Source: Cycas panzhihuaensis
Lineage: Eukaryota; Plantae; Cycadophyta
DNA: 64,000 nucleotides
Direction: 5' to 3'
Assembly: GCA_023213395.1 (NCBI GenBank)
Contig: CM041465.1
Coordinates: forward strand, 171,933,741-171,997,740
Shown: positions 22,636 through 62,596 of the stretch, piece by piece
Position numbering within the stretch: position 1 is the stretch's first letter
Layout: each line of letters opens with the position of its first letter
Translations under genes and position numbers: made by a program
The notes under the pieces: model-generated
Database searches by the model: none
What the model saw: only the letters and a program-made list of their open reading frames with translations
What the model was told of the DNA's origin: nothing

Positions 22636-25600
22636 TGCTGGGATAACACCCAATGTACATTTATAGATGTACACCTAGGGCCCCTCAAAGCCAACTTTGG
22701 GGCCCCCTCGGGCACCTTGAGCCGCAAATCAGTTACCAGTAGCCACCATATGCCGCCACAATTCTATTAAGGTACACGCTCTTTATTAATTTTATTTTAT
22801 TTTTAATATTAACTTGAAATCATGTGCAAGTCAAGTTGAGGGACTTGTCGTCTCCCTAAATTTATCTATAAAAGGGATGGGAATACCTCCTTAGTGTTTT
22901 TTAAGACTACTCACTATTCATGTGGAAATCTTTAATCAAAAGAGCAAGAATGCACTCACCATTATGAAGTCTCACTCTATACCTCATCCTTCACTTGGTA
23001 TCAGAGTGCTCAATTTTATCAATGGTAATTCTATATTGTATTTTTATTTATTATTCTCTTTTATATTAAAGTTTATACTAAGGTTATTATTTGAATATTT
23101 AATATATTAACATGAGTGACCTCCATTTGATGCATATGTGCTCTATTGGAACATTTAACTCCCATTTTTGTACAACAAAGTTAGTTGTATATAGGATATT
23201 AAAATTTTAGAAAGAAAAAGACTATTTTTTTAAAGTTTTTTCATCACTTTTTAAAAGTTCTCAACTTAGTTTCTAAGATAAATGGGTAACTTAAACTTCA
23301 GAGAAGTCCAGCTCCCACACTAGTGATCGGAACCCTATTAAGCGACTACTCATTTTAATTGTAGTTAAGTTATCTTCATAACAAAAGAATTGGTTCATTA
23401 TTTCATGCACCAAAAGTGGAGATATCCTCCTTAGACTGCCAAGTACTCTCTCTAGTCTCTAAAACCCCACAGTCTCTTTTACTTTTTTTCTCTTTTGGCT
23501 TAATATTTATCATTTTTTTTTTTTTTTCTTGGGAATCTTAGGTGCCCAGACCCTACACCTAGTTTTAGATATCATTAAGCACAATATTATGCTCTTAGTG
23601 TTTGTTTCGTGTCTTGGTTGTCCTCCATTCATATGCCATTTGTGCTTTGATTTTTCATTGTTTTAGTTTATTCTTTCCATAGAACTCTCTATCTACTCTC
23701 TGTGGAGCTACCCTATGAGTAACTATAGATTGTATCTACTCTCTGCATTTACCGTATGACCTTCATTCTCTCTCAGTAACCATGCACTTTTGTCAACATA
23801 TTGCTTGATGATTTATATATATAAATTAAATTTTTTGAAGTATTTCCTCTCCAAATCTCCTTACAGATCGTTGGCACACCTCTATAAACCATTCTCAATT
23901 GATCTTTACTTTATTTTGATCATAGTATTAAATCTAATTCACCTCAGTAGTCCTCTAATGATGTGCAACTTGAGTTTGCTATTTTTCTTTTTTTTTATAT
24001 TAAAAATTATTTTTTAATCTCTTTTTTCTTAATAATTGGATTGTTAGATCTGTTGTAGTCATTTTCTGATCATTCTTTATTAGACTACGATCCATTTTAG
24101 TCATTTTTTTGATCGATCATCGTATCTATTTGTTGAAATTTTACGATGGCATGTTCTATTGTTAAATTTTTTTATTTTTCTAAAGTTTGTAAAAATTAAG
24201 TTATATTGAATAGTATTTTGAAATCTAGGCAAGTTATTTTTTACTTTAGACCCTTTCCTCCATTGACCCTGATCTCATTTGAACTCCATGTAACCATTAG
24301 CCTATATATTAGAGGGGCTAAATCACTTTTTAATATAAAGTTTTATTTATATTTTCTTCAAAAGGGTCACTATCACTTTTTCCACTATATTTTCTCTTTG
24401 GTTTATCTATTTTTAGCAAAATTAGGTCCATTGTGTTCATCTTTTAGAGAGCTTTAGTGTGGACTACTTATTTATCAAATTTGAAACTGTTTTGATTGAG
24501 ATTTAATCACTTGAAGTGACATCTTCATTCAACCTTTATTTTGTTAACTATAAAGAGGTCCTTTCACCTTTTCTACAATAACTCTTGCATGCGAGCTCTA
24601 TTTTCTGAACCGTTAGTTTTGTTGGAAAGCTAATTCATTCCTCTATATGTTGATATAAATTTTTATCTAATTTGAATCCATTTTGTAGGTTTTCAAAGTA
24701 GATGAATTTAAGGTAACTCATTTGACTTAGTTCTTTACTTTTCTACAATATTAAAGAAATTTTTCTAAGTTTCTTTGGCTTAAGATATATTAAATAATCT
24801 CTAATCTATATGTGACATTTTTCACATCATTCTACAAAGATTTAGTCTAAAATTTGTAGCATCTAAGCTCTGTGGCTCTAGTTTAAGCCCTTAAAAGGGT
24901 CCTCTCACTCATTCATTAATATCTTAAGCTCTAGGAGCCTAGTTTTCAAATAGTCAAATTTGTCAAAAAGATTTTTTAATATTCTTCAAATTAGAATAGG
25001 TTTTACTAAAATCTAACATTATTTTATAGGTATTTAAAGTTAGTAATCTTGAGCTTCTTATTTAGCCTTGATAGGCCTAATCTTCTAACTCTTTAAGTAG
25101 TTCATTATTTCAAAAAGGATTATACTTACATTATTGATCATTACTAATCTATTCTTGAAGCTATTATTGACTCTTCCTTGTATTTTTCAAGGTATTTTAT
25201 AGCAAGAAGTTAGTTCTTCAGCACTTAAAGTTATCAACAAACTAAATGGTACTACTTCAACAAATGGGTATAACCTGTGCTACATTTGTTTACTTTCTAC
25301 ATTAGCCATTAAATACTCATTACGTTTTGATATTTTTATCATCTTAAGCAAAGTTTATACTTTAGAATTTTAGGTTTTATATACATCTACTTTATTTTTC
25401 AAAAGGATAATTAGTCATCTCCATTATCTTACATACATTGAGAAAGAAGTTATTTTATTCTATATTAATATAGAAGTCATTTTCCATTTTGCTTTAGCTT
25501 CTTATTACATTTGAAAGTTTCAAGATTAGTTGAAAAAATTCCATTTCTTATCTATCTATTTATCATTAAAAGCAACTAAAGTTTGGTCTTACATTGTTAA

Positions 25601-28600
25601 AAGCATTAAAGAAGCATATAGATCCTTGTTCTTTCTACATCATATCAAGCTAAAAAACTAGGTTGCATATCATCTAGTATTCTTTTACTTCTTTAGAAAG
25701 GAAAAGGTTCATTAGCCCATTTACTTGATTTAATAAGATTTAAAGGAAAGGTTATTGCATATATACTTTTGAAAGTTTGAAAGATATCTTTATTTCATAT
25801 AAGTTTATCTCTATTATTTATTCTTTATTGTTCTTTTGCTTAGTGAATTTATTTTCCTTTTAGTTACTTTATTTATAGTATAAAAGGAACCTTTTTCAAA
25901 CCCTAAGTAAGACCATAAGTTTTAATTAATATATCATCATATTAAAAAGATAACTCCTGAATTAATCACTCTTATTTCTAACCTTACAAAGGAACTGGTT
26001 AGGACCCCTAAAATTACCACTACGCACACACTAATTGGTCTACTCGTATTGGATGAGAAAAGCCATTAGATTTAAGGTGTATTAGGTGGCAGGCTAAGGT
26101 GTAAAACCTATTCTTATTTAGTGTTTAGAGACCAAGGCTAGACCTAGAGAAGGTGAGTTCCTTGGTTCGAGTAATCTTCACCACTAGATCTATCGATAGG
26201 TATAAGTCTAGTGTAGGTGGTTCCATAATTTAGGGGAGTGTAAAAACCTCCGTAGTAGCCTGCATACTAAGGTGTATCAAGCCTTAAGCTTATGTACTAG
26301 TATATTGGGTCCTTGTTTTACCACTTGTAGTTAGGCACCACTAGATAGAATAACAACTAAAGGTTTCCCTTAGAGACCCCTAAATTTAGACCCTAAAAAC
26401 CTTATTAAGGACTAGTTCACCTTTGAAACTTTAGCTAAATTTTGGGATATTGACACTTGGTTTAAATTTAGAATTCAAACACTTATAAACCTTATTTATA
26501 AAAAACTTTAGCAAAAATAACCTCAAGCTTTAGTAATATAATTATTCTTAAATTCGATGGAAACAACTTCTTGAATTAGAGTGGGAGGATGAGACCCATT
26601 CTCATAGCTAATAAAATATGAGAGATTGTGAAATCAAGGTGCAATGAGTTAGGCCTAAATATAATTGATGCAAAAAAAATTACTTAAAAAAGAAAAAGTC
26701 AAGAAGGGCAACGATGCTCTTGCACTTATATTTGTGCACTAGAAGACTATGTTTTCCCTTGGGTTAGTGAATCCACTAAATTAAAAGAAGCATGGGATAC
26801 ATTTCAGTTGATCTATGAAGGAGTTGCATCCTCCAAGCTCCAAAATCTTAGAAGCAAGTTTGAGAACTTGTGTATGATACCCATAGAATTGGTAATAGAA
26901 TTTATGACCAAAGTTCAGGATATAGTCAACCAGATGAGGTCTCTTAAGGATACTTTAATAGAACAAAGGGTGGTTGAATGAATCTTATGATGTGTTGGTG
27001 CCGTTAGAAGATTTGAGATGGTTACCACAAGTATAGGTATGTTAAAGGACTTAAGTGCATTAAAGGTTGAACAACTAAGTGTTATGCTTATGTCAGTAGA
27101 AGAATAATAGAATGCCAATGAATTGCTTAAGCATGCCTTTCCCATTAAGGCTCAAATTTAATCAAATTCTCAAGAAGGAACTTCAAAATCTAGGGAATCA
27201 CCTCCTAAGAGAAGGGATAGGAACCCTAGAAGGGATGTTAGATAAGACCCTCCCAAGTATCAAGCCCCACTTCAAAGGAGACATGGAGGACATCAACAAA
27301 ATAAGAACCCTCCTAGGTACCCAAACTAAAGGAAATAATTTGAAGGACATATATGTTATCTAAATTATCAATGCAATGCTTAATCATCAAGGTCCAATAA
27401 GGATTATTATGATAATAGACCAAGAGAAAATCCTCCTCCACATCATGAGGAAAAGGGGAGACCTTCCAATGTTAATAGACCTCATCCATAAAGCAGAAGT
27501 TTAAGCTATAGAAGGAGAGATCCTTTATATTATTCCTATTTCCATAGAAGTGGTCATTCATAAGATAAGTGTTTTTCAAAACATAGACCACCCACCAAAG
27601 GAAGTGCCCATAACACAACAGAATTAGAGGACAATAATAGATTATTCTTATCGAGCTTCAATGCCAAGGAAGAAGAGGACGATAATTGATATATTTACTT
27701 AGGTTGTTCAACCTATATGACCCATAAGGAATACCTATTTTGAATATTGGATAAAAGCAAGAAGGGATCCATAATATTTAAAGATGATACCTCCCACGAA
27801 TCAATTGGTAGAGGTAATATATCCTTAATGATAGATATAAGAGAGTATAGATATCTTGATGATGTCTTATATATCCTAACTTTAAAGAAAAATTTATTAT
27901 CTATAGGGTAGATGATGAGACAAGACTACAAAGTTATCTTTGATAATGGTGAGTGTGTAATCAAAGATAAAAAGAGAAACAAAGTTATAGTTGAAAAAGG
28001 GAAGATGACCAAGGATCAATTATTCAAACTCATTCTTACTCTTTTAGGTACCTATGCCCTAAGAACTTCAATTAAATTGGATAACAAATAGTGGCATAGA
28101 AGATTTGGCCATCTTAATTATAATAATTTAGCCCTTATAAAGTGGATGGATATGGTAAATAGATTACCACATATTGAAGTAAACAAAAACCTATGTGAAT
28201 GATGTCTTCTTGGTAAACACCATGGGGAAAGTTTTCTATACTTTAGTCATCTAGCATTAGGTCCATTTCAATTGGTATATATAGATATTTGTAGACTAAT
28301 GAATATTCCCTGACTAGTAAGTGCTTGATACTTTATCACATTCATAGATGATTTCATAAGGAAGACATGGGTATTCTTCCTCAAATATAAATCAGATGCC
28401 TTTCAACACTTTGTTGACTTCAAAACCTTTATGGAGTGACAAAGTGGATATAGATTACTATCCCTAAGATTAAATAATAGGGGAGAATTTATCTCTAATG
28501 CATTTAAGAATTATTGTATACACCATGGTATTAGAAGATAGTTCACTAATCCATATACCCCACAATAAAACATTGTAGTAGAGAACAAAAATTGCACAAT

Positions 28601-31117
28601 AGTCGAAATGGCTAGGTATATGTTAAAGGATAAGAATTTGGGACATGCATTTTTGGATAAAGTAATACATACAGGTATATATTTACTCAACAGGTGCTCC
28701 ACTAAAGCCCTTAGATGGAAAACCCTTTAAGAAGCTTGGACTAGTTATAAACCAAGTATGCATTATCTTAGTCTTTGGATGCCTAGCCTATGCTCATATT
28801 CCTAATCAATGAAGATTCAAGTTATATGATCATAGGATTAAATGTATGTTCCTTGGTTATAGTAAAACATCTAAGTCATACAAAATTTATGACCCCAAAT
28901 TAAAAAGTGTCATGTTAAGCAGAGATGTTAAATTCTAAGAGGATGCTTATTATCAAGACATTTAAGAAAAGAATAAGGAAGTTACAATTAAGTTTGATAC
29001 ATCATCCAAACCTAAATATGTGGCTCCTATGTTTGACTCTAGAAGAGTCATCAATAAACCTAGTGGGGAGGGAACCCCCTCTCAACCTCCACCAAAAAAT
29101 CTACCAAAATGGATTCATCGGAATCATGACTTAAGTAACATATTGGACAATAATCATAGATCCACACGCTCACATAGGGTTAATTTTGCCCTCATGAGCA
29201 AAGTATTGGAGACTTATGAGCCTCAAACTTTTGATGAGGTTAATCAACATGCATGTTGGTGAAGAGTAATAGAAGATGAATACAACTCCATTGTTAAAAA
29301 TAACACTTGGAAGCTAGTTAATTTACCTTCAAAGAAAAAGGCTATTCATACCAAATGGATCTATAAAACCAAGTTTCTTTCAGATGACACTATTGACAAA
29401 TATAAGGCTAGATTGGTTACTAAGGGTTATTCCCAAAAAGAGGGCATTGACTATATTAAATCTTTTACCCTTGTAGCTTAGATGGAAATGGTTAAAATGA
29501 TAATGATCTTAACAGCCCGAATGGGTTGGAAAGTTTACTAAATGGATGTTAAAAGTGTCTTCCTCAATGACTATATTAAAGAAGATATTTATGTCACTTA
29601 ACCCCTTAGTTTTGAAGTCAGGGGGGCAGAAAACAAAGTGTATAAACTAAAAAAGACACTTTATAGATTAAAACAAGCACCCAGGGCTTGGTATTCTTGC
29701 ATATAGAAATACTTCAGAGATTAAGGATTTAAAATACCTCAAGTAGATCCTAATTTGTATATTCAAATCAAGGGAGATTCAATCTTAATAGTAGGAATTT
29801 ATGTGGATGACCTTGTATATACTGGAAATGACTCTCATTTATTGCAACAATTCAAAGATGTTATATATAAAAAATTTAAAATAACAGGTTTGGGGCTAAT
29901 GCATTACTTCTTAGGTTTGGAATTATGGTAAGACAAGAAGGGCATTTTCATTTACTAATGAAAATATACTTTAGATTTATTACAAAAGTTTAGGATGACT
30001 GATTATAAACCATTAGCAACTCTAGCAGAAATTAGAATTGAGGGTTCTAAGTCAAATCATTCTACATTAGTCGATCCTATGCTTTATAAACAACTTATTA
30101 GCAACTTGATATATTTGACATCTACTTGACCAAATATAACACACTCAGTTAGTATTATGTCTAGATTTATACAAGATCCAAAGACCACCCATTGGCAAGT
30201 AGTTAAGAGAATTCTCTCATATCTCAAAGGAACTCTAAAATAGGAGTTATACTATAAAGCTTCTCTAAAATTTTAGTTAACTGGCTATATAGAATTAGAT
30301 TAGGCAAGAGACATTGATGACAAGAAATCAATAATAGGTTATATATTTAGTATGGGATCGGTAGCCATAGTATGGAGTACAAAGAAATAAAACACATTTT
30401 TCTTATCTATGGCTCAGGTAGAGTACAAAGCAAGAGTTATAGATGCATGTAAATTAGTTTGGTTGAGAAGACTACTACAAGATTTTTAGCTAAAATAAAA
30501 AGGTCCTACCAAAATTTAGTGTGATAATCAGAGCACTATTCAAATGGAAAAGAATCTAATTTTTCATGGCAAAATAAAACATATTGAGACTCAACATCAC
30601 TTTCTTCAAGAACTAATATAAGTTGAAGAAATTGAATTGGCCTATTGTATCACTGAATACCAAACAATAAATATATTTACAAAGGCATTAGGTAAAGTTA
30701 AATTCTAAAAGTTTAGAGACAACTTGGGAGTTATTCACATTAGGTATTATGGGAGAAAATATTGGGATAACACCCAATGTGTATTTGTAGATATGTACTT
30801 AGGGCCCCTCAAAGCCACCTTTAAGGATCCTTAAGGTATCTTGAGCTGTAAATCAGCTGCAAGTAGCCACCATATACTGACACAATTCTATTAAGGTATA
30901 TACTCTTTATTAATTTTATTATTTTTTTAATATTAACTTGAAATCATATGTAAGTTGAGTTGAGATACTTACCACCTCCCCAAATTTATCTATAAAAAGG
31001 GAGGGAATACCTCCCTGGTGTTTTTTAACACTACCCACTATTCATTTAGAAATCTTTAATCAAAAGAAAAAGAATGCACTTGCCATTGTGAAGTCCCACT
31101 TAGCATCTCATCCTTCA
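22636..31117 (+). mobile_element. Full-length decayed Ty1/copia element, copy 2 (same family as copy 1), inserted in the chromovirus 5' LTR
   Basis: TSD AATTC (22631-22635, 31118-31122). LTRs 22636-22993 and 30760-31117. PBS TGGTATCAGAG at 22996, PPT GGGAGAAAA 30751-30759. Confidence 0.96.
26517..30750 (+). pseudogene. Copia gag-pol, copy 2 (start codon decayed to ATA, many stops)
   Basis: Colinear with 11741-15930. YVDD intact at ~29799-29810; shares NFALMSKVLETYEPQTF. Confidence 0.94.
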
Positions 31118-31391
31118 AATTCAAATAATAAATATACATCAAAATGTATAATAATATGATCTCTTGATAATATTTCAATATAATAAACCATATGCATTTC
31201 CTGGACCTTAGATAGATAATGATGGCCACCTTATATAGAATCTCATTGAAAGGAGAATTGACTTACAATCCTATTAGTGGGCTAAACAACCTATATTTAA
31301 AAGTTAATGGCCCCTACTAATCAGTAGGTTACTTGTTCACATGTATCAATAGTCACTCTCCACAGTTAACAAGCAGTTATATAACACTATT

Positions 31392-32473
31392 TATTAGTAC
31401 TTTCTTCTATAATATTTTGGTTTATAGTAGAACATGGTAAGATAACCTTAAATAATTAGATATAACCTTGTAAACATTGAGGGATAATAGATTCTACACA
31501 AAAATGTCTAAATAAAGCTTTAGTTGACAATCGCTACATTATTTAAGACACATAATATTATCAGAGGATGAATGCCTAATTGACCTGACTAAGGTTTTAA
31601 CCATTATTGATTAATTAAAACTAAAAAATATAGGGACTTTTAGGCCTTACTAGCTACTATAAGAAAGTTATGAAGAAATATATAATTATAATAAGCCCAC
31701 TCACATATTTATATAAGAACAATGACTTATATTAAGGCAATATGACATATAAAAGTTTTAATTATCTTAAGATTTCCTATATATGTCCTTGTCATGCTAG
31801 ATTTTTCTTAACCCTTTACTATTAAATGTGGCACATCTTAGGACTTGGATTGGTATAACACTCCTTTAAAATGATAGGCTGTTATATTTAAGATTTGAAA
31901 GTTGAACCTTAGGAAATAAGATAGGAGAACTTATGATAAAGAGATGGTTATAATTTTGAACACCTTATAAAAATGGTAATAGTGCTTACTTGTAAGTAAA
32001 TTTATAATAAAGGATCATTATAACTTGCAATAATTTCTATCATAGTTGAACCTCTTTAGAGAATAATATAAGTGGATAAGTAAGATTCAATATTATGATT
32101 TCAAAATCACATATAAAAGGGTTAGTGACAATGTTATAACAAGTGCCTTTTAAGGAAACATAAAGAAAGAAATTGTGTAACTATATTAATTACTCAATCT
32201 TCATGGCTAGATAAACCTTGACATGAATATGCCACTAGTTAAGAGATTGACATACTCATCTAGAAATATAATGTCATAGTACCATGACCTAGTTAGACCA
32301 TAAGGGTAGGACTCTATTATATAAAAGTATAATATACCTTTTGAGTAGTTCAAGCCTTAAGGATAAAGTACTTCAAGAACACCATTAATCCTCTTCAATT
32401 AGCCATGTGGGATTCATAGAGAGTTACAAAAAAGTTAAGAGATCATTTTACTAGAAGAAAATAAAAGGCAATG
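31392..32473 (+). pseudogene. Host chromovirus pol segment 2 (RT core, RNase H, start of INT zinc finger)
   Basis: FFYNILVYSRTW (decayed FFDDILVYS), LGLTSYYKK, TYDKEM, HVGFIESYKKVKRSFY. Confidence 0.85.
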
Positions 32474-33729
32474 TATTGCCCCATAAAGGTATAATAGTTT
32501 AAATTTTTTACTATATTTTAAGGAAAGGACCTAGAATAGGGCTATGCTTTTTTATTTTCATTATGTAATAAAAGATCATATCAGCATTAAGGCTACTTTG
32601 ACATAATGGAAAAATTAATCCCAAGTGTTTGTAGTCATGTTTTGCTTCAGTGGGACATCAACCTTATGACATATTTAAAATATAGAAAAACCATAAAAAA
32701 AAGACAAACTTTGATGAGAAGATATAAGGCGAAGGGTTTTAAGGAATGTTTCCTAGAAAACATTCTCTAATAAAAAGATATTAAAATGCTTCATGATCGA
32801 AGAAAAGGCATACCAAGTAGGAAGTCCCAAAGTGGGGAGCTTCCAATAAAGAAAAGGATGAATGAGAGAAAGTAGAAAATAATTTATCTTCCTATTATTT
32901 CTAGTCTTGCAGGCTTAGTTTTCATATATAACCTATTTTTGTTCTAAATATACTTTTTGAGTTACTAAGTAGGAAGGTGTCAGATAGAAAAATAACTTGC
33001 AGGAAGACCCAACTAAAGAGATTAAACAATGGGTCTTACTTTTCTTACCAATTTATGCTTCTTCTAATGATTGTCCTATTAGACAAACATAAAGTAAGAA
33101 GGGGATATAAAGAAAAGAGTACCAAGTGAGAGTTACCAAAGTAAGAAATCACCAAGTAGGAAGCCACAAGGTGAGATAAAGAATAGCAAGTAACAAGCCC
33201 ACAGAATGTTTTCCCAAAAGTTACTTCAATTCAAAGATACCATTTAGAAAAACATAATCATCAAGTGGGAGGAAATAAGGTGGGGAAAACCATTAAATGA
33301 TAAAGATTATTCCTACTAGTGACTTCCTTGTGAGGAGACCTCTCCATTGAGTTTTGTTCCCCAAATAAAAATTATCATGTAGGAAAGAGGTCTATGGGAG
33401 AAGAAAGTTTCATATGCCACTAAAATTTAATAGACATTCTTGAATTATACATAGGTATTAATGATTGTACATATGAGGATTAATGTCAAGCATGCATAAA
33501 GGATACTTATACCCTATTAACCTTTTTTCCTTCTTATTTGACATACAACATATAGAGTTTAGAAGGAATTTACTACAAAGCATTTATAGAATTTTATTAA
33601 CATTTCTAGAGAAGATTTCAAGTTGGTAACTCATTTTCCTCATCTTCGTTTACATATAGGAAGGTAGTCAAAATCTCAAGTGCATGCAATTTTCTTTTCC
33701 TTTACATTTTAGTAAATAAAGGAGGTAAG

Positions 33730-36700
33730 ATGTTGACCGTTAAAGATATAAAGTTAACACTTCAATAATCAAATTCTCAACTATGCCTAGACTACAAAAA
33801 TAATGAGGATGCTATGCAGTGCTATGGTCTAGCTAAGATCCCCCTAATCCTCAAGATGTTCCTATGCCCTAAGTTAATAAGGCAATTGTTGTTATGTGTG
33901 GACTAAGAAGCAAGAGTAATCTTGGGACCTAATAATCAAATCATTGCATCTCTTGTCACCAAACACTTTTGAGAAATACTCAAACTCACAAAGCCAAAAT
34001 AGCTTATGATGTAATAAATCTACAAAAAATGGTAGGAAATGATAAAGAAATTGCCAAGGAAATGGGAGATTAGTACATGGAGAAACTTTAAAAAGACATG
34101 AAGAAAAAAACCGCAAAGATGGAGTTATTCAAGGATCATATAAGTCTATGGAATTTTCTCTTATTATGGGATTTTAGTTTAAGTGATGATACCAAAATGC
34201 ACCTAACAAAAGCCTTTATTACATTCAAATTTTTAAAGGAAGATTTTTTGCTAAACTGGGTAGAGATTTTTAGCTAGACTATCTTGGAGTAACTCTGTGG
34301 CTTAAATCAAGCTACCTAATTTTATATGACTTCTTATTTGATTTATGCCATATTAGGAACTATGGGATTCCCTACTTTCTTACTCAAGACTAAGATAAAT
34401 AATGCCCCAATCTAGTTATGGTATGTAAAGGCTTGAGAAAATAAAATTCCTTCTCATCCTTACTCTAGGGTTAAGAATTTTTAGATAGAGATTATTATCA
34501 ATCTACAACCCTAAGTTAGAAAAGATGAATATGTAAAACTTTGGTTGTGAGGGTAGGATGGTATATTACAATCTAGTTAAGAATTATATTACAATCTAGT
34601 TATATTTTTTTAAGGGATCAACCTTATATTTACCATTATACTCTCCGTCCCCTTACTTATTTTACATAGAGGTATGCATACAATTATCACATATTAGAGA
34701 AGTATTATATCCTGTTACTAGAAAAACTCCTTTGTAATCCAAAGATTTATCTATTAGATATTGGGGCACTAGTGTTTAGTCTAAAATTGACTTAGAGGGG
34801 AAATAATTTAAAGTTAATAATTTAAAGAAGGTACCCCCAAGATATTATGATCCTGATGGAATTATAGAAAATTATATAAAAATAATTAAGATAATACTTA
34901 AAGTGCATCAACTCAATGGTCTTGAAGTTTTCTAAAATCAAGATAATAAGGGAAAGGGATGTTTGAATCATCTTGTGTTTTATTAAGACACATAGTCAAC
35001 TACCCAAGCATTTACAAATTCCTAACAAGGAAGAAAAAACTATAGAAGTAACAAAGAAGCAAGTATAAGAGCATAGAAAAGGAAGGTATATGAGGAGTCA
35101 TGAGATAAAGAGAAGAAGAAAAACAAAAATTCTTACTACCATATTTTATATCACCTTTGCCCATTACTATAGAGTCAACATTATAAAGTCTTGTAATGAT
35201 AAAGAAAAAGGCCACAATAGTCATTACGATGAAGGATACTTAAGTAGCTATCACACCTACCATAAAACCCAAGGGGAAACTACCTAAGACACTACTTTAT
35301 TTGGTCTTTGATACATCTACAACCATACCTACACCATAGGGATTAGACATGAAAATAATATAGGAAGGCATGAAAGAGGGATACCATTGTATACAAGTAT
35401 ATGATACTGATAATGCTCTAGTTGACCCTATTAAGGAAGGAATAACATCATAGACTAAAATTCAACTCATTGGTAAGGAAATAATATAGGCTCCAGATAT
35501 AGCCTTACGTCCTTAATAATAGCTCCGTGTGGAAACAACTATTGAAAAAATAGTAGAAGTTATAAGCTTAGAGGGAGGACAAGATATTATTAAGATACAA
35601 TAAATACTAAAGGAAGTAGAACATTCCTTAAAATATATAGAAATATCTATCATGGATTAGGTAGGAATCCATGATGATCATATCAAATAGCTAACAATCC
35701 ATGACCTACATTTTGAATGCCTTCTACAATCCCTAAAGTCTACTATGAAAGAAATCGGTCTTAAGCTTAAGACAAGTCAAGGGGATGATAAAATACTTTC
35801 AGTCAACTAAGAGAGAGAAAGAGAAATAAATCCCTACATGATATAATAGATTAAGAATAGAATATTTTTTTTCACTCCTAACTCATCCATAATTTTTTAT
35901 GAATATGTTAAGGAAAGGTTTTATTATTGGGATAGAAAGGAGAGAATCATTAAGAAGATAATTATATAGAGAGAAAAGGTTATTGAATCTTCTACTTAGT
36001 CTACTTATAATGTTATACTTAAATTTGTAGATCTATGCATGACCATTAGGTAAGTGGTGAAAGATAAAGTAATAGGACTTTAGATTCAATTACAATTGGT
36101 GATGGAGGAAAATACTCTAATTTGAGAAGACAACTCAGTACTAAATCAACAATAAAACTAAATGAAAAACACTTGGTAGGACACTGTAAAGGATATGACC
36201 TTGGATCAAATAGATCTTAGGATTGATGAGTGGGTAACTAGAATCAAAATGGCCAAAAAATCATTAAGATTAAATATAATATATATAAGAAATGTTTTTA
36301 GAAGGGAAGACCTTTTAAGACCCTATTTCTAGAACTTCTTTTAAAGAATTGTTCACTTGCATAATAGAATTCAAAGTCTAAGGAATACAGTAATTAAATT
36401 TTAGAATTATTGTGTCATGGAGTTATAGCCTAAAGGTGGTTTCACTAAATTTCAAAAGGAAGTAACCTTGAGAACAACCCAGAATAAACAAAATCATACT
36501 AATCTTATTCTATAGTGGCATCATGTGCTAGAGTCAGGAACAGACAATTATAAGAAAATCACTCTCATGCTGGATGATCTTGAAAGGATTTTAAATAATA
36601 TTTTAATAAATATTTTTTCTTCAATTTATTTTATTAATATATCTATATTAAACCAAGGATTCATAGTGTATAATCATGAGTTTAACAAATTGGTAGCTTG

Positions 36701-37009
36701 GTAGTTGGAGAAATAGATAGAAGAAGGTAGTATATGGACTTAATAACGATAAAGGAAGCTAAACAATGGACTACACTAATATGGGACTAGAGTAAATACT
36801 AGATTTCACTCAAGAATTTAATAGACTCCTAAGAGCATAAATTAAACAAAATTAGAGAAAAGATATATAAAGAAGAGGGATATTTAGAACTCATCAAGCC
36901 TTATATTCTATAAGCCATGAACTTCCAAATCAAAGCTGACACTACTAAAACCTCTTCAACCATCAAACAACAAAATTAAACACCATCATTAAAAGATACT
37001 AATGACTAA
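33730..37009 (+). pseudogene. LTR-embedded extra ORF (~1090 codons) of unknown function, 5' LTR copy
   Basis: Starts MLTVKDIKLTL and includes FLCPKLI and FYMTSYLIYAI. Several of its stops are sense codons in the other LTR copy and vice versa. The 3' end is approximate. Confidence 0.75.
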
Positions 37010-37014
37010 CTATT

Positions 37015-40000
37015 TAATGGGTGTAATACCCAATTACATATTAGCCTTATGTAATATCTCTCTCTATTTATTTATATTTTTATATTAGAGGTTATTGGCC
37101 ACATAGAGATATATACCACCTCTAAGTTGACTAATGGGGTTCTCTCACTAATGGTAAGTATGTATTATAAGTATGTACTTTTTCATTCTCTATAATTTAA
37201 ATTTTAGCCAATTCTCCACATATGGTATTTATTTATATACATGCTTCATCTTACTTATACTTTATTACTTTATCTTTAACTCACCATTAGATGTTGTGTA
37301 TATTTCATTTTTAATTCTTAACACAGTATCAAAGCCCAAGGTTTAATCTTTAGAGATATCATTATAAACCCTACTACATGTTATCCTTATTTTAATTTTT
37401 TAAGTCTTGTTAATTTTTTTATGTGCCTATTCTATGACCTATTCCCTTGAAGGATCATTTCAATTTATTTGAATCCATCTTATGCATATTTTATTACAGG
37501 ACTATTACCAACTTTTGAGGAGTTATTTTAAGGATTTCTTTTGTAGCTAATTTGAAGCCTATTTAGGTTACTCAAATGGATATTTTATGTGCATGTGGCA
37601 CCATAATAATATTGCATACAGGATCTTCATGGTGAAAGTCCATAGAAAATTCCTTGTATAGATTCCAATTACTATATGACCATCCCCTTTGCATGTCAGT
37701 GGACAAGAATATAATAGGATCGTTGACAGTAGTTGATAGAGCCCTTCTTAGCTAGGAGTAACTCTATTTCAAAAGGATATGAAGATTTACAGGTGAATAA
37801 AGGTCATTCATGTGTGTGTGTGTGTGTGTGTGTGTACTCTATTTATGGCTTATTGTATTGAAAAATCAAAATATTATATTTATGGCCTTTAATATTTAAT
37901 CTATGTTTTATGTATCTTTTATAAAAAAAAGAGGAAAGATTATTAAGTTTTCTTATTGATTTTATTTTTTAGAGAAATGAACTTGTACTAATTCATAACA
38001 AGCCTTTGAAGCACTTGAACATCCAAGTATGCCACATCTATGAAGGGGTCAACCAAAATATTATGGTCATGTTTTAAACAAGGTATGTTTTTTGATATAC
38101 TGGAATTCTTAGGAGTTATCTTATAATTAGTTACCCTCTATTATTGTGAGTTCCCCAAAGAAGAGAATTTTGGAAGATAGTAGCTATAAGCATCAATTTC
38201 CATGTGAATTTCCATACGACTGGGTTCCTCTACCCTTCAATTAGATTTGTCTTTATGCTCACCAGACTTGTTGATAGTTGGGTTGAGCAAAATTGATGAA
38301 GATGATGATTACATGGTAAGGTTAGTTGAGTGAGTCACTTATTCCATGGTAGATGGTGATGATATCTCTACTAATAATGAAATATGATATAGAATAAGAA
38401 TGAGATAAGATCGGAATAAGGAAATTATAGCTAATTGAACTCAACTTTCCATTTCGTGCATATTTAAACTATTCTAAAGCTTTTCATTAACTTTAATAAC
38501 ATTAAGTTAAGGTTAAGGGTATTCTATCCTATGAATGACAAGATCATGCAGATTGAACTACACCCTAAAGTAAATCTTCCATTAGACCTTCCATAGTTAC
38601 CTTGAGACACTTTCCCTATACAAGTTTAGTATTGAGGGAAGTGACTATAATGGCTCCTAAGTTCACTATATTGAAGCTCCTAAGTGACTAAGTGCTTATT
38701 AAGATCAAGAGAATCAAAGAGAAGACTCAAGGGATTATATTTCTACTTATCATAGCCCAGAAAAAACCCCAAGGAGATGAGGTCATAACTATTAGTGAGG
38801 TTGTGGTTATTGGTGGTTGTAAGACTGTTAGTAAATTTTGCCTCACTATATCTCCATTCATGGCCACCACCTCGCCATCATCAACATGTAAACCTACAAT
38901 CTCAAAGGTGACTGCTTAAGCAAATATTGAAGGTGGAAGAAAATTAATGTCATCGCAAACCTATGCAGAGGAACAATGGCCACTTGTAAACTTACAATAA
39001 AAATCAATGGCAGCTAGAGGAGTGTCCCCTTACCCTATCACTAGTGGCTACTTATAAGTTGCAGAGATGAAGATAGCAAAACCCTACTAATATTAAGATT
39101 AATCTTTTTTCAATAATTTTTGCTTTGGCATATGATATTTTTAGGAAGGCATATGTAAATCTCTATTCAAAGGGCTTAATTATTTTTTGCATTTATAAAT
39201 TTAAATTTAATCAGATTGGATACTTTCTTTGGGTCTATCTAGCCCCCCTTATGCCTTAGCCCCTTAGTCAATTACAACAATCATATGACCTCCAACTCCT
39301 AGTGAAAGGGGCTTAACCCCTAATTTACATACTTTATAGAGTACTCATCACAGTTTTGATGATATCTTGAGCTAGGGGGATCCTTTTTCAGTCCTATCTA
39401 TTATGATGGACTCATAACAGAGAGATCTTTCTACTGATAGTTCATTTGACACTATTTGGAGTTGTTTCCATGAAAAAATTTTAGTTCAAAGTCATAAGTT
39501 TATTTTTTCCAACTTCTTCAGGCACATATTATATTTTTAAGCCTCCATGATGTGATGTACTCTAAATGGAGGGGATAACATGTGCTAAGGTCTAATTTTT
39601 TACTCTAGAGAACCTATTAAGTTTTATTTTGTACTTCATTATATGAGAGAGAGCCATTAATGTAATAATTTAAGTCATATATATCCTTTTAAGTCATTTA
39701 TTAACTTTTATTATTAGTTTTTTAGCCCATTGAGGTAAATTTGAGGGCATAGAGACTATTGTATTTTCAACCATTAGATGCTAAAGAAGTAATAGTCTTA
39801 TTTAGCAAGAGGTAGGATACACTTTTATTAGCAAGAGGTAGGATACACTTTTTCAGTTACATACTTTTCACTTAAAGACTACTTACACTCTTATATAAGC
39901 AATGGGCGGGACCATTTTATAGCTACTATTACCAACTCTAATTGATCCACGTATATAAATAGAGTTCCTACTCACCTAACAGTTACAACAACTAGCAACC

Positions 40001-40456
40001 CATATATTCTAGTAGATGGACTTTACTTCATATGGATATTGGTATCTCTTTATTCATGTGTAGCAGTATTTAATACAACATACTTTTAAAGACTTGAGCT
40101 TTATTTGATGTGACAATCTTTTATATAATTGACTATAATAAAGGGGAATGTTGAGTGTAATATCCAAATACATATTACCCTATGTAATCTCTCTCTCTAT
40201 TTATTTGTATTTTTATATTAGAGATTTTAGGCTACATAAAGATGTATGCTACCTCTAAGTTAACCAATGAGGTTCTCTCACTAATGATGAGTATGTACTA
40301 TAAGTATGTATTTTTTTGTTTTCTCTAATTTAAGTTTTGGCCAATCCTCCACATATGGTATTTATTTGTATATATGTTTCATCTTACTTGTACTTTATTG
40401 CTTTATCTTTAACTCACCATTAGATGTTGTGTATATTTTATTTTCAATTCTTAACA
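37015..40456 (+). mobile_element. Non-autonomous LTR element, family C copy 1 (3.4 kb)
   Basis: LTRs 37015-37323 and 40149-40456. Decayed PBS CAGTATCAAAGCC, PPT AAAGGGGAA, TSD CTATT/ATATT. Absent from the 3' Tat LTR. Confidence 0.9.
37811..37835. repeat. (TG)n microsatellite
   Basis: TG run inside family C copy 1. Confidence 0.95.
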
Positions 40457-40616
40457 ATATTCATTCTACCATTCTAATTAATTTTGTATAATAACTTTAT
40501 AAAACTTAAGGATCCTAGTAATTACTACACTTCTTACACAAGTAGTAAGATTGTATTTTATATAATAGTGTTATAGACATATACCACTAATAGAAGTCAA
40601 TCATAATTATAGCTAA

Positions 40617-43600
40617 TGTTGGGTGTAATACCTAATTACATACATTAACCCTGTGTAAACTCTTTCTATTCTTTGTATTTTTATATTACAGGTTATGGGA
40701 CACCTAGAGATGTGTGCCACTTCTAAGTTAACTAATAAGGTTTTCTCACTAGTGATGAGCATGTATTATAAGTCTGTACTCTTCATTCTCCCTAATTGAG
40801 TTTTGGCCAATTCTCCATATAAGGTGTTCATGTTATACATACTTCATTTCTCTTGTACTTTATTATTTATCATTCACTGGCCATTAGATGTTTGTTGTAT
40901 AGTTTGTATTTCTAATTCGAACATGTTATCAGAGCTTAAGGTCCAATCCTTGAGGATACCATTATAAACCCTAGTACATATTATCCTTGTTTTGATCCTT
41001 TAAGCCTTATAAATTTTTTGATGTGCCTGCTTTATGACTTAGTCAATTAAAGGATCATTTCAGGTTATCTGAATCCATCTTATACATATTTTGTTATGGG
41101 ACTATTATCAAATTTTGAGGGGCTATTTTATATTAATATGACGCTACATTCAAGCCCATTTTAAAGTTTTGTAGATGTTTGAAGCCTGCTAAAGATGCTT
41201 AAGTGGACATATTCTATGCATGTGGCACCATAATAACATTACATGCAGGTGAAAGTCCACAACAATTTCTTATGTAGATTTCAATTACTAAATGACCATT
41301 TCCTTTACATATCAGTGGATAAGAATGCAATAGGAATCATTGACAGTAGTTGAGTGAGTCCTTCTTATTATCTAGAAGCTAGGAGTGACTCTATTTTGAA
41401 AGAGTTTACAAATTTACAAGTGAACAAGGTCATATATTTTTCTATTACTGATATGTACTCTCCTTATGTTCAAAAATTCTGTATTTAAGGCCTTTAAAAT
41501 CTAGCCTATATTCTTATGTATTTTTAAAAAAGAAAAATAGCCAAAGTTATCTATTTAGAGGGTGATAATCATGTCGATATTGTATTGTGATAATCATGTC
41601 AATATTCATTTTCCATATAAACCCAAGTACCTTACTAAGTCTTACCCAGAAATTAAAAGATATAAGTGTAGAGCCTAAACTCAGTGGTAATATCTTGAGA
41701 GTTTATTTAATTGCAAGGATAGTTATCATAAGTGCTATATTTTAGAGTATGCATTACTCTTTACAGAGGACTAAGCTAGGGAGTAGGTGCAAGTAATGTA
41801 TACAAGTTGAACCTATAAGGAATAAGCATGATATTGATCCTCATAATGATTTATCAACATTACAGTATTAAATCCTATAATATCATCTCTCTAAAGGGGA
41901 CCTACCCATGATGCCTTTCGTAGGAGGTATCCCATTAAATATCACTCTAGAGTTTGTCAGAGATCTTCCTAATGATTATGCCTAGCAACACGAAGATCCC
42001 TTAGTTCTGCAAATAAGGTAAAGCTGAAGAATTAGCACCTACAGTCTTACTGCACTCTTGCTACTCAACCTGAGTCTAACTCTGGTGATGATGAGGGTGC
42101 TAGATATGGCATATAACCTAAGAGCAAGAACTTCAATAAACCTTTGGCCTCTAAGCAAAGGTAGTGACCCTGCACAATAATGATGATGTAGATATGGCCA
42201 CTTAAATAAACAAATTAGATGAAACCCTAATTAACATTTAGTATTAACATATTTTGTGTTTGGTCGATTATTTTTTATAATTTATTTTTTTAATTGTGAT
42301 CAAATACTAATTTTTATTTAAAGTGGTTTATATTTTTCCATTTGGAACATTATATTAAATAATAGTTTTGGGTCCACTCAGCCCCTAAACGCTAAGTTCT
42401 AGGTCATATCAAACTTCCATATGACCTCTATCTAGTAGTAAAAATGGCTTAATACCTATTTTTAATTTTTTATAGAGTTCTCCTAATAGTTTTGATGATA
42501 TCTTGAGCTATAAGCATCTATTTTTAGTCTTATTTATTGCATTGGGGTTTATAATAGAGAGACCTTTCATTTGACAGGTCATTTGACATATTTTAGAGTT
42601 ATTTCTATAGAGAATTTTTAATTCAAAGTTATATGCCTATATTTTTTTTCATTTTTTCTTAACTTCTTTAGGCACATATTATATTTTCAAGGCTCTATGA
42701 TGTGGTTTATCCTAAATAAGAGGGATAACATATATCATGGTCTTATTTTTTAGCTCTTAAAAAACCCATTGAGTTCATTTTATACTTTGTTATATGAGAG
42801 AGAGTCATGTATGCTTTACTCAAGTTACATTTATCATTTTTAAGTTATGTAAAAATATATATTGTTGATTATTTTACCTATGGTGGCAAGTTGTATAGCC
42901 TAAAGAGATATATTTTAGCACATATAGCAAATTTAAGGCCATAGTACCCATTGTATTGCTAGCCATTAGATGCTGAAGAAGTGATAGTCCTATTTAGTAA
43001 TAGGCAGGATATACTTTTAAAGCTACTCTTGTCCACCATATAGCATAATCCATATGTCATTTATGTATATTTTTCTACTTACACTTCTATATAAGGAAGG
43101 GGTAAGACCTTTTTTCAGTTACTCTTGCTAGTTATAGATTGGTCCACATATACAAAGGAAGTTCCTACCCAACTAGTAGTTGCAGCAACTAAGGACCTAT
43201 GTATTCTAGTAGATAGACTTTGCTTCATATAGACATTGACAATTTTTTATTCATGTGCAACAACATTTATGATCTAGCATACTTTTGAAGACTTGAGCTT
43301 ATCATTTGATATAACAATATTTTATGTAATTGACTATTATAAGGGGGAATGTTGGGCTAATTATATACATTGACCCTATATAAACTCTCTCTATTCTTTG
43401 TACTTTATATTAGAGGTTGTGGGCCACCTAGAGATGTGTGCCACCTCTAAGTCGACTAATGGGGTTCTCTCACTAATGGTAAGTATGTATTATAAGTATA
43501 TACTCTTTATTCTTTGTAATTGAGTTTTGGCCAATTCTCCACATAAGGTGTTCATGTTATACATGGTTTATTTCTCTTGTACTTTATTATTTATCATTCA

Positions 43601-43647
43601 CTCACCATTAAATATTTGTTGTATAGTTTGTATTTCTAATTATAATA
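40617..43647 (+). mobile_element. Non-autonomous LTR element, family C copy 2 (3.0 kb), inside the 5' LTR of element D
   Basis: TSD GCTAA (40612-40616, 43648-43652). LTRs 40617-40923 and 43350-43647. PBS TGTTATCAGAGC 40924, PPT AAGGGGGAA. Confidence 0.93.
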
Positions 43648-44609
43648 GCTAAATCATGGATTAATAAAAGTTAGCTTCAATTATAATTATTAGAAATTAT
43701 TTTTATTATTATTAGAGACTAGATTTATTATTACTATTATTATTATTATTATTATTATTAGAAGTTGGTTTTATTATTATTAAGAAGTTAGGTTTTGAAA
43801 AGGTGATCAATTTTAACACCTATAAAAAAAGAATTATCATTCATTTGTAAATCATCCTTGGGGAGTTAATTCATTTAAGGACTTTTAACCAATTAGGTCT
43901 TAGGAGATTCTATTTAGCTTTAATTTTAGTTTTCTTTTATATTTATAGAAGCAAATCTAATTTAGTATCATTTCAAGTGGTATCAGAGCTTTATTTTTAG
44001 CATATCAAGGATTTATATTTTTAGGAGTATAAATGAAAGAATTAAAAAAAACATAGTTATCAATTTGAGTCAACCAAGCCTATTTTATAAATTTTGAGTG
44101 ATTATACCATAGGTTTTGAAGTAAAATTATAAAAATTATAAGGAATTTAGTTTTGACCTATTACATATCACTACCTTTAGGACCTAAAATCTACAAATGT
44201 AACTTTAGAGAACCATGAATTTAGCTATAGGTATCTGAATAAGCTCATTTTTTAAAAATCTATATTTCTTGACATCTACTTTCCATTAGAAGTGGTTTAA
44301 AATCAACTGGATATTATACTAGAAATTTATATGGATTTTAGTAAAAGATACTATTATAGTCTCCAAAATTCCTAATTGTGACCCATATTAAAAGGGCCAT
44401 AACTTCTTCTATAGGTATCAGAATTTAATTTTGTCTAAAGCATTAGAATATTTATTTGGAGGACTTCATTTTGAGGTATAAATTTAATATGCTTAGAAAT
44501 AATTTTATATGGTAAACATTAAGAGATACTCAAGTAGTCATTAGGAAGGTTGTAAAAATTAGAGCTTTGTTTGAGATTTAAAAAACTAGAGATAACCAAA
44601 TATAAGAGA

Positions 44610-46000
44610 AGAATGGATTAAGTTTTTTAGGACCTCTAAAATCTCAGGGAAAAAAATTAAAGAGCAAAAAGAAGAGATATATAAGCTATCTACTAAAGTA
44701 AATAACATAACAAAAATATTAACAACAAAGGATTTTGAAAAAAAAGAGAGCACCAATGATGGTAATGATAAGGACGAAGATAAAAAAGAATATAAAAGAT
44801 ATGAAGAAGAGGATTAGAAGGAATAAAAGAAATATGAGGACCACCAATAGCTAGTGTTTTTCCATAATCTAAAGATACTAGTCTATGCCTAAGATGGTAA
44901 TATTAAAGCAAATAAATTGTTAGTAAAACTAGAAAATACTATTGATGAACTCAATATTAGTAACATATATTAACAAATCAACTTTACCATAGACCATCTA
45001 ATGGTATCTATGTATCATTGGGTAATACTCTAGAAAAAGAAAGGAAAAACTCATAATTTAAAATATTTTATAGAAGCCTTTTAGAAAGAAATAGAAGAAT
45101 CCAAGAGGGATAACACCTCCTTCACTAAGGGTCCTCTACTATATATCAGTAATCCATAACTCATAATACAAATAGAGGTTCTCTACTCTAGAATAAATAT
45201 GTCACATAAAGTAAATATCATGATACAATAAGAGAAGGCTAAATATCAAATCATTTAAAGAGGATTTAATATCATGACATTACCCAAAATCCTAATCTCG
45301 AGATCTAAGAAATTTAAGCCTAGTAAGTAATAAACCTTGAGCTATTAATATAATAATTCTAACACAAGTAAATCCCTAAGCATTATACAAAGGGAGTAAG
45401 AAGGCAACAAGGCTAATGAAAATACACTCAATATTTACTACACATGTGAAAACCATTAGAGAAAAAGGAACTAGTATATGAAGACTAATGAGATCGATAT
45501 TGAAGATGATGATTGAAAAGAATGTAAAGAAGACTTAAAGGAGGGATAATCTTGTGATAAAGAATCAACCTATATGGAAGAAGAAAAAGCAAAGGATAGT
45601 CAATGTAAATCTCTCTTACCAACCATGTTAAATGTACCATAAGCTAATACCATCAAGCTCTTTGGTTACCTCAAAAAGGAAAAAGTTGTGATTCCCATCA
45701 ATCTAGGCAGTGCCCATGACTTAAGAAATACTTAGATAAACAAGAAATTAGGATTAACTATGAAGAGAGAGAAGTCCTATACCTCACATTTAGGAGGATT
45801 GAGCTTAGGCAGAATTAGGTACCAATGACTTTATATAGGTAATTACAAGTTTTTGATCAATTATTATCCCACTTGTATAGATGTATTTGATGTAATCTTA
45901 GGCATCAAATAATTACAAATACTTGGGGCTTATTCCTTGAATCACAATAGGAAATTCATCAAGTTTAGAATTAATGGGTAGAAATACTAACTAATAAGAA
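44610..46000 (+). pseudogene. Decayed gag-protease of element D
   Basis: YYTCENH*RK (zinc-knuckle-like, ~45436), TIKLFGYLKKEKVVIPINLGSAH (protease, ~45648-45717), FDVILGIK*LQILG (~45887). Boundaries are approximate. Confidence 0.7.
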
Positions 46001-49000: not shown

Positions 49001-49210
49001 ACATTAGGAGCTTATCGAGAGGAATCTTTATCTTCTTACTTAAATGATATGGTCATGACATCCTTTAGAGATCTTGAATAAAAATAAATAGAAGACTTGA
49101 ACATGTTTATTCTTACTAGGGTGAAAAATATTTGATAAGGAGGCCCTTATAAAAATTCAAATCAAAGAAATAATTATTCTAGGGAAGTCACCTAGGACAA
49201 TAGACCAAAT

Positions 49211-49747
49211 TATTAGAATATGCTATTTAATCATATATCTAATATTTATTGTTAATGACACAGATACATATATAATATCACTAATTAGATACATTATGAT
49301 ATGTAATAGGCATAGTTATTCATGTTAACATCCTATTAGATGATATAATTATTCTAGAGTAATTATAAGCTACTAATGAGGTGAATATTGTTATAAATAT
49401 ATGCACACATCACTTGAAAACTTGAGAAAAGAGATGTACTTAATCTAATCATAAGAGGAGCTCTAAAATCTATCTTCTCTTATGGTTTTTCCTACACTGA
49501 GTTTTCTATATATAAATTCTATTGTCTCTCTTGTGGTGAATTCTCATGATGCTTATTAATGTATGCTTTTATTTCACTACTTTATGATTCATGTTTATTC
49601 CATTATATGTGTACATTCCTTATAATATAATTTAGTTATTACATATGTATGTAATATTCTATTATATAAATACTCTAAATTCTAATTCGATATCAAAGTA
49701 TTTATATTTTCAACATGGTATTACAACTATAATTATAAATTCTATCA
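49211..49747 (+). mobile_element. Truncated LTR element (one LTR 49211-49715, PBS remnant, short tail) between Tat gag and PR
   Basis: TATTAGAATATG...TTCAACA followed by TGGTATTAC. Candidate TSD CAAAT (49206-49210, 49748-49752). Resembles the reverse complement of 60055-60560. Confidence 0.6.
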
Positions 49748-52700: not shown

Positions 52701-53447
52701 AAGGGCCATGTCAACTGATAACTAAGTTAGGACGACCAAATCTATTAGAATTAGAGTAAAAGTAGAATTTAGGTGATGAAATATAGTGAGTGCTATAGGA
52801 GAAAAGTATGAAGGTTTTTCTCCCTTGTTACAAGATATCAAATTTTACCTATAAAATTGTGAATTCCCTTCTTATTTAGATAGGAGAAGGTGCAAAACGC
52901 TAAGAATAAAAGCAAACCTATACATGTTAATCTAAGGGGATTTGTAGTAAAGAAATTTTAATGGTATGTTAGTTGCTTGATAGTAGCAAAAACACAAGAT
53001 ACCATTGAAAATTCCATGTTATGATGTACAGAGGGCATTTTCTTATTAATGCTACTACTCATTAGATTCTAAGGGCCAGTTTCTATTGGCCTACTATATT
53101 TTGTAATGCTTATTTGAAGGTTAGGAATTAAAAAACATGTCAAAAGTTTATAGGTAAGTAAAAGTTAAGTGCCATGCCTTTGAAGATAACATGCATAGAT
53201 CAACTTTTTAAAATATAGGGATTAAACTTTATAGGTCCAATAATTTTGATGTCTAAAAAGGGGCATATATTTATTCTTATTGCCATTAATTATTTTATAA
53301 GGTAGGTCAAATTAGTGACTGCTAAAAGGGCCACTACCAAGGTATTTATAGACTTCCTACAAGAAGTTATCATACCTAGATTTGGTGTCCCATCCTTTTT
53401 GGTTTATGATAATGCTATAATATTTACATCAAATAAAAAGAACAAAT

Positions 53448-61456: not shown

Positions 61457-62596
61457 TTGTTACTTCTATTATCCTAGCTAATTTTGTGTAACAATTTCTC
61501 CAAAGTTAAGGATCCTAATAATTACTACACTTCCTACATAAGGGATAAAATTATCTCCTATATACTAAGTGAAGGAATACCAACACTCGGGGATTTATAA
61601 AAAGACACTAATCAACAAATGAAGGCATCATGATCTTAGGAGAGAGAAAAAAGAGAAGGAATTCCTTTCATTATCTTTTTTTCTTTAATAAGGACTTTTC
61701 AATACAAGCCTATTTTCTTTAATAAATCTCTTGTATTCTAAAAGCAAAATTGTTAGAGAAAGAGGTAAGATTTTAAGAAGGGTTCATTGAATATGCAAGG
61801 ATTAAAGATTGTAGACCATTTTTCTTTTGAAGGCCAAAACACTTTGGTAATCATATTACTATAAAAGTGTTTGGTTCTATATTATAAGATTATAAATTTA
61901 ATACTAAATAAAATACATTTTAGAGAACTTATAACACTTGACGTGTTCTTTTCTTATACCCCTTTCTATTTAATTAGCATACGAATTTCATGTAGTTAAA
62001 TTGTTATTCTTTTGTGTAGAGTTTTCCTGAGGAAATCAATTTTACAATGAAGGAATGAGATGGATGTCCCTTATATCCTTAGATTTTAATAGCTTCTGCA
62101 CTTTCAAGTGATTACTCTTTTTTTATTATTTGGAATAATTTTCATTAGGTGAGTATAAAGTGCATATTAAGGCTTTCTGGATATACATTATCCTTGCCAT
62201 GGATGTTATATCATTTCAAAGATAAGTGGGTTTATATTAGTCTTATACTTTTTCCTTATTGATGGTTTTGGGAACATTATTGAAAAGTATTAATTGATAG
62301 TGGTGTATTTCTTTAATACCCAAACTTTGTCGATAGATCTATGCCTTAGAGTCTTTAGCCCAAGTAGAGCTAGATGCAGATCTTGGGAAAAGAACTTTAT
62401 AAACCACCTTTAAAGTTTAATATCTCCACCTAATAATTCTTAAAAGGATTCATAAAATCTAATAGTGGGTTCAATCTATCTGCATTTTCTTGTAAGCGTC
62501 GTTGTGTTGTATCCCCTCAAATGCTTTAGATATTGAAGTATTACTAATAGGGATACCAAACCATCATAGTAAGCACTTCAAATAGGTAATACAATG

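Follow-up and report, generated by a model that had tools for sequence, protein, structure and literature searches.

As far as the accessible text of Neumann 2019 (PMC6317226) goes, the TatI and TatII lineages of Ty3/gypsy retrotransposons are defined by an aRH domain placed before the reverse transcriptase (RT), and TatII comes from gymnosperms. The 27 TatII elements of REXdb are 8.3-18.1 kb long in that text, with target-site duplications (TSDs) of 5/4 bp and primer-binding sites (PBSs) mostly of the tRNA-Asp or tRNA-Asn type, and extra open reading frames (ORFs) are recorded for 23% of them at the 5' side and 26% at the 3' side, both in sense orientation. Such ORFs are scored there by whether they lie upstream of the polyprotein or downstream of it, and never as lying in a long terminal repeat (LTR). 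Here we analysed a 64,000-nt stretch of the Cycas panzhihuaensis genome (GCA_023213395.1, contig CM041465.1:171,933,741-171,997,740, forward strand), hereafter the window, whose positions are used for all coordinates below. A single decayed TatII-type Ty3/gypsy element occupies 32474-62591 (the Tat element), and the broken copies of one gene lie inside both LTRs of this insertion. The Tat element has in common with TatII the aRH between protease and RT, a 5-bp TSD, a size near the top of the range and an extra ORF in sense orientation, which about a quarter of the elements have at the 5' and at the 3' position; its assignment to TatII was made by domain order, and TatI has the same order. The paired 5'/3' counts of TatII in REXdb may, on the part of the source available, already record an LTR-borne gene layout. 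Tekay elements in REXdb also have extra ORFs at both ends (33% 5'F, 18% 3'F in the accessible text of PMC6317226) and could hide LTR-borne ORFs too.

In the accessible text of Vicient and Casacuberta 2020 (PMC7264820), the extra ORFs of plant elements are described in the internal region, and gene23 of maize Grande has its own promoter. The 3' sense extra ORFs of Athila/SIRE (ATHILA ORF-1, PF03078; Transposase_32, PF20167) and the PMD and coiled-coil ORFs of Ogre/TatIII (PMC4408406, PMC7264820) are like the ORF of the Tat element in being accessory genes downstream of pol, in the same sense, with a globular N-terminal domain and a helical tail, but they are described as internal, whereas the ORF of the Tat element lies in both LTRs. 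No Pfam match of this ORF or of its relatives to PF20167, PF03078, PMD (PF10536) or Transposase_28 (PF04195) was found; a preliminary description of this DNA had proposed the last two comparisons, for which a remote homology may exist. According to the accessible parts of the reports, Ogre LTRs measure 1.9-6.5 kb (PMC6431247), and Retrosat2 has LTRs of more than 3.2 kb and an ORF0 upstream of gag-pol (PMC3485330). Both share with the Tat element multi-kilobase LTRs and an extra ORF of obscure function, but this ORF is internal in Ogre and upstream of gag-pol in Retrosat2, whereas the Tat element has it in the LTR. The gene takes up 3.3 of the 5.7 kb of the Tat LTR, and this is what makes the LTR so long. 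HIV nef overlaps U3. In mouse mammary tumour virus (MMTV), sag/naf lies in U3 and is expressed from a separate U3 promoter, as stated in the accessible text of PMC9412291. MMTV sag and the Tat ORF are both protein genes within LTR termini and are duplicated in both LTRs. No sequence relation between them was found or expected, the Tat ORF is about three times longer, and the Tat element, unlike MMTV, is in a plant host and without an envelope gene. No plant ORF placed inside an LTR was found in the literature searched, in which most subscription papers were out of reach and the sole exact-phrase match was MMTV, and no gene placed in an LTR was found in the accessible text of PMC3485330, PMC5408684, PMC11963269 and PMC6431247.

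The window has a GC content of 30% and is strongly decayed, with only one stop-to-stop frame reaching 150 codons. Self-BLAST of the window recovered, in pieces, a long direct repeat, which is the LTR pair; its identity is 78.6% over 5,545 aligned columns (Kimura two-parameter distance 0.26; 797 transitions, 392 transversions). The features of the Tat element and of its host given below, other than the TSDs, are all on the plus strand. The 5' LTR (32474-47736) consists of three pieces (32474-37015, 40462-40569 and 46675-47736) that add up to about 5.7 kb, and the 3' LTR (55744-62591) starts with TG and amounts to about 5.6 kb after removing a 1.2-kb insertion (about 59347-60560). The preliminary description had recognised the repeat pair correctly, but the spans that it took for the LTRs, 33730-37009 and 57022-61456, are those of the reading frame. 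The element is flanked by an identical 5-mer, the left TSD at 32469-32473 and the right TSD at 62592-62596, and the chance of identical flanking 5-mers within 10 positions is about 1%. Initial LTR borders at 32490 and 55760 were dropped, because the TSD was located 16 nt further outward. The decayed PBS-like site at 47738-47755 starts with TGG 1 nt beyond the 5' LTR end; it may be of the tRNA-Arg type. A purine tract at 55727-55739 (11/13 purines) stands 4 nt upstream of the 3' LTR and would serve as the polypurine tract (PPT); 1.2% of the window's 13-mers are equally purine- and G-rich.

The Tat element was inserted into the integrase gene of another retrotransposon. The left half of this host integrase, a chromovirus-like gypsy zinc finger at 32371-32473, matched Integrase_H2C2 at E 0.0026, under the curated cut-off, and aligned with the integrase of L004, one of the metagenomic loci described below. 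The right half at 62592-63200 continues from the end of the left half and, with no match in the Pfam search, was matched by the L004 integrase in tblastn at 62695-62970 (E 2e-10). Aligned to the zinc finger of L004, the left flank ends and the right flank begins at one position, so a deletion that trimmed a tandem arrangement has no room. Thus the repeats are true LTRs, as indicated by the TSD, the split host integrase, the TG after the purine tract and the PBS-like site. Between the LTRs, aRH (50660-50905; Pfam RVT_3, E 7e-10) precedes RT-RH (51341-52760; RVT_1, E 5e-10; RT_RNaseH_2, E 4e-15), in agreement with the Tat identity proposed earlier and with the TatII type. The integrase (about 52900-55580) is split by an insertion and gave a weak match to Pfam rve (E 0.044), and its stop is only about 165 nt from the start of the 3' LTR. 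Remnants of gag and protease within 47950-55580 were recognised by eye only and had no match in the Pfam search.

The ORF starts 1.25 kb into each LTR and stops 1,135 nt short of the 3' LTR end. Its copy in the 5' LTR spans 33730-37009 and has about 1,090 codons, and its copy in the 3' LTR spans 57022-61456 and is interrupted by the insertion. We followed each copy along a reading path of seven single-frame stretches, with frames picked by eye, and kept the stretch 59089-59346 in the stop counts although no frame gives a signal there. Along the path, in-frame stops made up 57 of 1,019 codons in one copy and 69 of 993 in the other, against 203 in 2,026 and 199 in 1,974 codons (about 10%) for the shifted frames, and each copy has several frameshifts. 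A frame-free coding test scored the composition: taking the best of three frames in 300-nt windows, with codon-position composition trained on RT-RH, the two ORF copies had z values of 5.8 and 7.2, neither of which was reached by any of 300 shuffles, while the controls had -0.7 (14 non-ORF LTR windows) and 3.0 (three gag/aRH/INT windows). So the long sense-strand frame that had been noticed in both repeats is present, and this composition supports the frame as the remnant of a real gene. The four pairs in which a stop of one copy was said to be complemented by the other are all in frame (57313/34020, 57439/34146, 57547/34254 and 57361/34068). The single frame of 300 codons claimed for the 3' copy could also be followed, with 19 stops inside those codons. 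Comparison of the two LTRs is not informative on selection: pN/pS values below 1 occur in non-coding blocks too and the ORF is no lower, and LTR-LTR dN/dS is unable to show selection because the two copies were identical at insertion and diverged afterwards. A shuffle test of shared stops gave no separation either (29 of 1,000 for the ORF, 36 of 1,000 for the non-ORF LTR control). The ORF does lie upstream of the TATA-like boxes, as first described, with TATAAAA at 46699-46705 and its counterpart at 61596; these words may be the LTR promoter, which would place the ORF in U3. The first 1.25 kb of the LTR, before the gene (32474-33729 in the 5' LTR), is non-coding by composition and may act as a promoter of the gene.

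Relatives of the encoded protein were searched by HMMER over 1.84 billion representatives, which gave three protein relatives (E 3e-5 to 2e-4), all unnamed singletons, and by a metagenome scan, in which 6 of 297 candidate stretches were confirmed as related loci (L001-L006). Locus L002 has an open frame of 758 aa, and the first 190 residues align with it nearly gap-free at 14-23% identity. A profile built from the locus proteins alone matched only the two LTR copies (independent E-value, iE, 2e-4 and 3e-4), and L001 matched the 5' LTR copy (copy 1) beyond the search motif (iE 6e-4). None of the six C-terminal pieces of the relatives matched the window at iE <0.05, the match of protein P0005 to 34669-35004 was weak (E 0.086), and word-index homologue searches gave no match, which is weak evidence. 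The relatives have a common layout of a conserved N-terminal domain, an acidic low-complexity linker and a helical tail in about 900-1,000 codons. On these alignments, the window ORF belongs to an unnamed family of extra-ORF proteins.

The loci also indicate where the gene stands in other elements. In L006 the gene stop is directly followed by a purine run, four bases and a 1,028-bp TG...CA unit with a TATA box, and L005 is by eye similar, with a 1.3-kb LTR-like end followed by foreign protease sequence, so the internal 3' layout was found in 2 of the 6 loci. Just past the LTR-like end of L006, a G-rich word at 5798-5820 could be a PBS, in which case the unit would be a 5' or shared LTR instead of a simple 3' LTR. 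The beginning of L001 is a tail that resembles the integrase of the Tat element (iE 0.003), about 3 kb upstream of the gene match, and L001 is the only one of the six loci with a trace of same-element pol. In L002, a tandem array of units of about 184 bp (408-1943) and a TATA box at 2061, about 750 nt before the ORF, lie upstream of the gene, like the internal 3' regions of Tat elements.

Searches for the nature of the protein were mostly blank. Pfam gave nothing above the curated cut-off for 11 ORF pieces and the relatives, the PDB sequence search had no match at E 1, and Rfam had no match. Two AlphaFold2 models were poor (mean pLDDT 41 and 46), and Foldseek with the second of them gave nothing at E <=0.001, which is meaningless at such model confidence. 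In the ESM Atlas, the feature neighbours of protein P0004 were clusters of PF20167 (0.88) and PF03078 (0.86), which are below 0.9 and thus leads only, and P0005 had no usable neighbour. No transmembrane stretch was found, as 0 of 21 pieces reached a Kyte-Doolittle value of 1.9 over 19 residues, and runs of at least four basic residues occurred in three of the four loci scanned. By its sequence the protein is not Env-like. Its likely domain plan starts with an N-terminal helical domain of about 450 aa, continues with an acidic linker that contains basic clusters and closes with a helical tail. The coiled coil suggested earlier for the C-terminal half left a weak signal, with the heptad score reached by 1 to 9 of 40 shuffles in six C-terminal stretches, and the K/E/L/I share (0.44) was about that of one shifted frame (0.43). 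Host PMD proteins reportedly act in silencing. The anti-silencing or chromatin role put forward in the preliminary description found no domain match in the ORF or its relatives; the protein would likely be a soluble accessory factor of the nucleus, and binding to chromatin or nucleic acid is the best guess for its role, held with somewhat more doubt than confidence.

In reverse transcription, the sequence between the PPT and R at the RNA 3' end becomes the U3 of both LTRs. We consider it probable that a 3' extra ORF was captured into U3 at the level of the family, by an upstream shift of plus-strand priming. The ancestral state would be an extra ORF that was internal, 3' of pol, and stood just before the purine tract and a short LTR; plus-strand priming would then have moved from just after the extra ORF to about 165 nt after the integrase. 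Because everything from the PPT to R is copied into both LTRs, such a shift would duplicate the gene together with its 1.25-kb upstream region in each round. The copy inherited via RNA would be that of the 3' LTR only, from which the 5' copy would be regenerated, and each LTR would form a full unit with the upstream promoter, the gene and the LTR poly(A) signal, as is the case for MMTV sag. The LTR-borne layout looks derived by LTR expansion, since the relatives carry the gene as an internal 3' extra ORF, and in its size and the position of its TATA box the last 1.1 kb of the Tat LTR corresponds to the entire LTR-like unit found in L005 and L006. Behind the ORF stop, no purine tract plus TG as good and conserved in both copies was found; the best candidate, at 61567, has no TG, and decay could mask an old one. 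We favour a trait shared within a TatII sub-lineage over a one-off event as the nature of this layout. A further step, which we regard as speculative and rather unlikely as a whole, is that this TatII sub-lineage has a conserved accessory gene for 1,090 aa in every LTR, and that solo LTRs would be promoter-gene-terminator cassettes which, once gag-pol is lost, would go on providing in trans a nuclear factor with an anti-silencing or chromatin role; this would be a plant counterpart of MMTV sag and a cause of giant LTRs.

Several observations weigh against this reading. The lineage II of Ustyantsev 2015 is described, in the accessible part of that source, as having no extra ORFs. The only whole element available is the Tat element of the window; a gene inside a duplicated LTR was found in 0 of the 6 loci, none of which is long enough for two LTRs, and L005 and L006 contain no pol, so the lineage is not given by them. 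Identity between the window ORF and its relatives is just 14-31%, and the matches are partly circular because the search profile and the motif were derived from the window. At the borders, the 5' LTR begins with TA, which we interpret as a decayed TG, and the 3' LTR, which compared with the 5' LTR lacks about 8 bases at its terminus, does not end in a clean CA. U3 would be the parsimonious location of the ORF, judged from the TATA-like words only. Finally, the stop rate of the ORF (5.6-6.9%) is above that of gag-pol (2.6-3.8%), and 27 of 963 aligned codon pairs have a stop in both copies; from these two results the ORF may have been dead at insertion.

The last of these points leads to the explanation that U3 expansion took in a decaying, unselected gene as a dead passenger, which is compatible with the same account of the layout. 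The LTR-LTR pN/pS, which is not below that of the non-coding blocks, also fits it, but the coding composition matches the strength of gag/aRH/INT over nearly the whole length, length and layout agree with the 900-1,000-codon genes of the relatives, and parallel C-to-T decay can make shared stops in a pair with so many transitions; we hold it improbable, though still worth keeping in view. The layout could also be an accident of this locus: the family would normally have a 1.1-kb LTR with the 3' ORF internal, and this copy would stem from a single aberrant priming event further upstream or from a tandem dimer whose first LTR-gag-pol was deleted. This would account for the internal gene of L005 and L006, for the single element observed and for the stops common to both copies. 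However, a deletion has no room given the exact TSD, the TG start at the left junction and the continuity of the host integrase across the insertion; a purine tract marks the new border, and none that is conserved was found behind the gene; and the paired TatII counts in REXdb, as accessible, fit a recurring layout. We judge such an accident unlikely. The gene could instead lie downstream of the transcription start, in R/U5, where the genomic RNA would carry it as a 5' leader ORF, as with Ogre ORF1 or Retrosat2 ORF0; the start position in the LTR is inferred, TATA-like words occur in the 1.25 kb of LTR that precedes the ATG, and the TATA box of L002 also precedes its ORF by several hundred nucleotides. 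This is very unlikely in our view, as the final 1.1 kb fits the whole LTR-like unit of the relatives in size and TATA placement, and U3 is the only route by which a 3'-internal gene can reach the LTR in the established course of reverse transcription. With no gene at all, frames that are low in stops by chance, in AT-rich repeat DNA, would agree with the Pfam blank for the 11 pieces, the failure of the shared-stop test to separate the ORF from the non-ORF LTR and the absence of signal in every frame at 59089-59346, but they are contradicted by the frame-free composition test and by homologues that include a 758-aa open frame aligned nearly gap-free over about 190 residues, which makes them hardly credible.

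Both LTRs and the internal region of the Tat element contain younger sequence. Two LTR insertions are nested in the 5' LTR on the plus strand, at 37016-40456 and at 40570-46670, both found by self-BLAST with junctions judged by eye; the second contains a further element at 40618-43641. The LTR elements at 37016-40456 and 40618-43641 are related to each other; they are 3 kb long with LTRs of 300 bp, show no obvious coding frame and are probably non-autonomous, and further related pieces are at about 5300-6750 and 17340-17700. The insertion at 40570-46670 is gypsy-like, with gag/protease remnants (about 44700-46200, by eye) and a 5-bp TSD, and is itself interrupted. The Tat integrase is split by a 1.6-kb insertion at 53450-55051 with 385-bp direct repeats that are 84% identical. 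A small insertion at 49213-49726 is related to that of the 3' LTR (here 59365-60563), in opposite orientation, and the latter has a contig depth far above its surroundings in 4 of 4 sequencing runs. Contigs at 80-95% identity span 30 of 30 bins in 4 of 4 sequencing runs, so other copies of the family exist. Many contigs that have diverged cover the segment before the purine tract (55670-55743), and a single deep one connects 55569 with 55703; the segment may represent a conserved motif that precedes the PPT. Outside the Tat element, remnants of RT/RH and integrase and a tail like a chromodomain can be recognised by eye in the host gypsy element (31118-32473 and 62592-63700), a second gypsy integrase is near 3280-5230 on the minus strand, and two related copia-like elements with 355-bp LTRs are at 7886-16291 and 22639-31117 (76% identity over 5.3 kb).

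In reviews, the extra ORFs of plant elements belong to the internal region and LTRs are seen as regulatory, and a whole gene in U3 would be a simple cause for some multi-kilobase LTRs. LTR-LTR recombination normally erases all coding capacity of an element, but it is predicted to leave a gene in the LTR in place. An unnamed family of proteins of about 1,000 aa with no Pfam or PDB match now has a natural open frame of 758 aa in L002. The finding also opens the question, which existing data can address, of whether one gene present twice, in the LTRs, stands behind those TatII elements for which a 5' as well as a 3' extra ORF is recorded.

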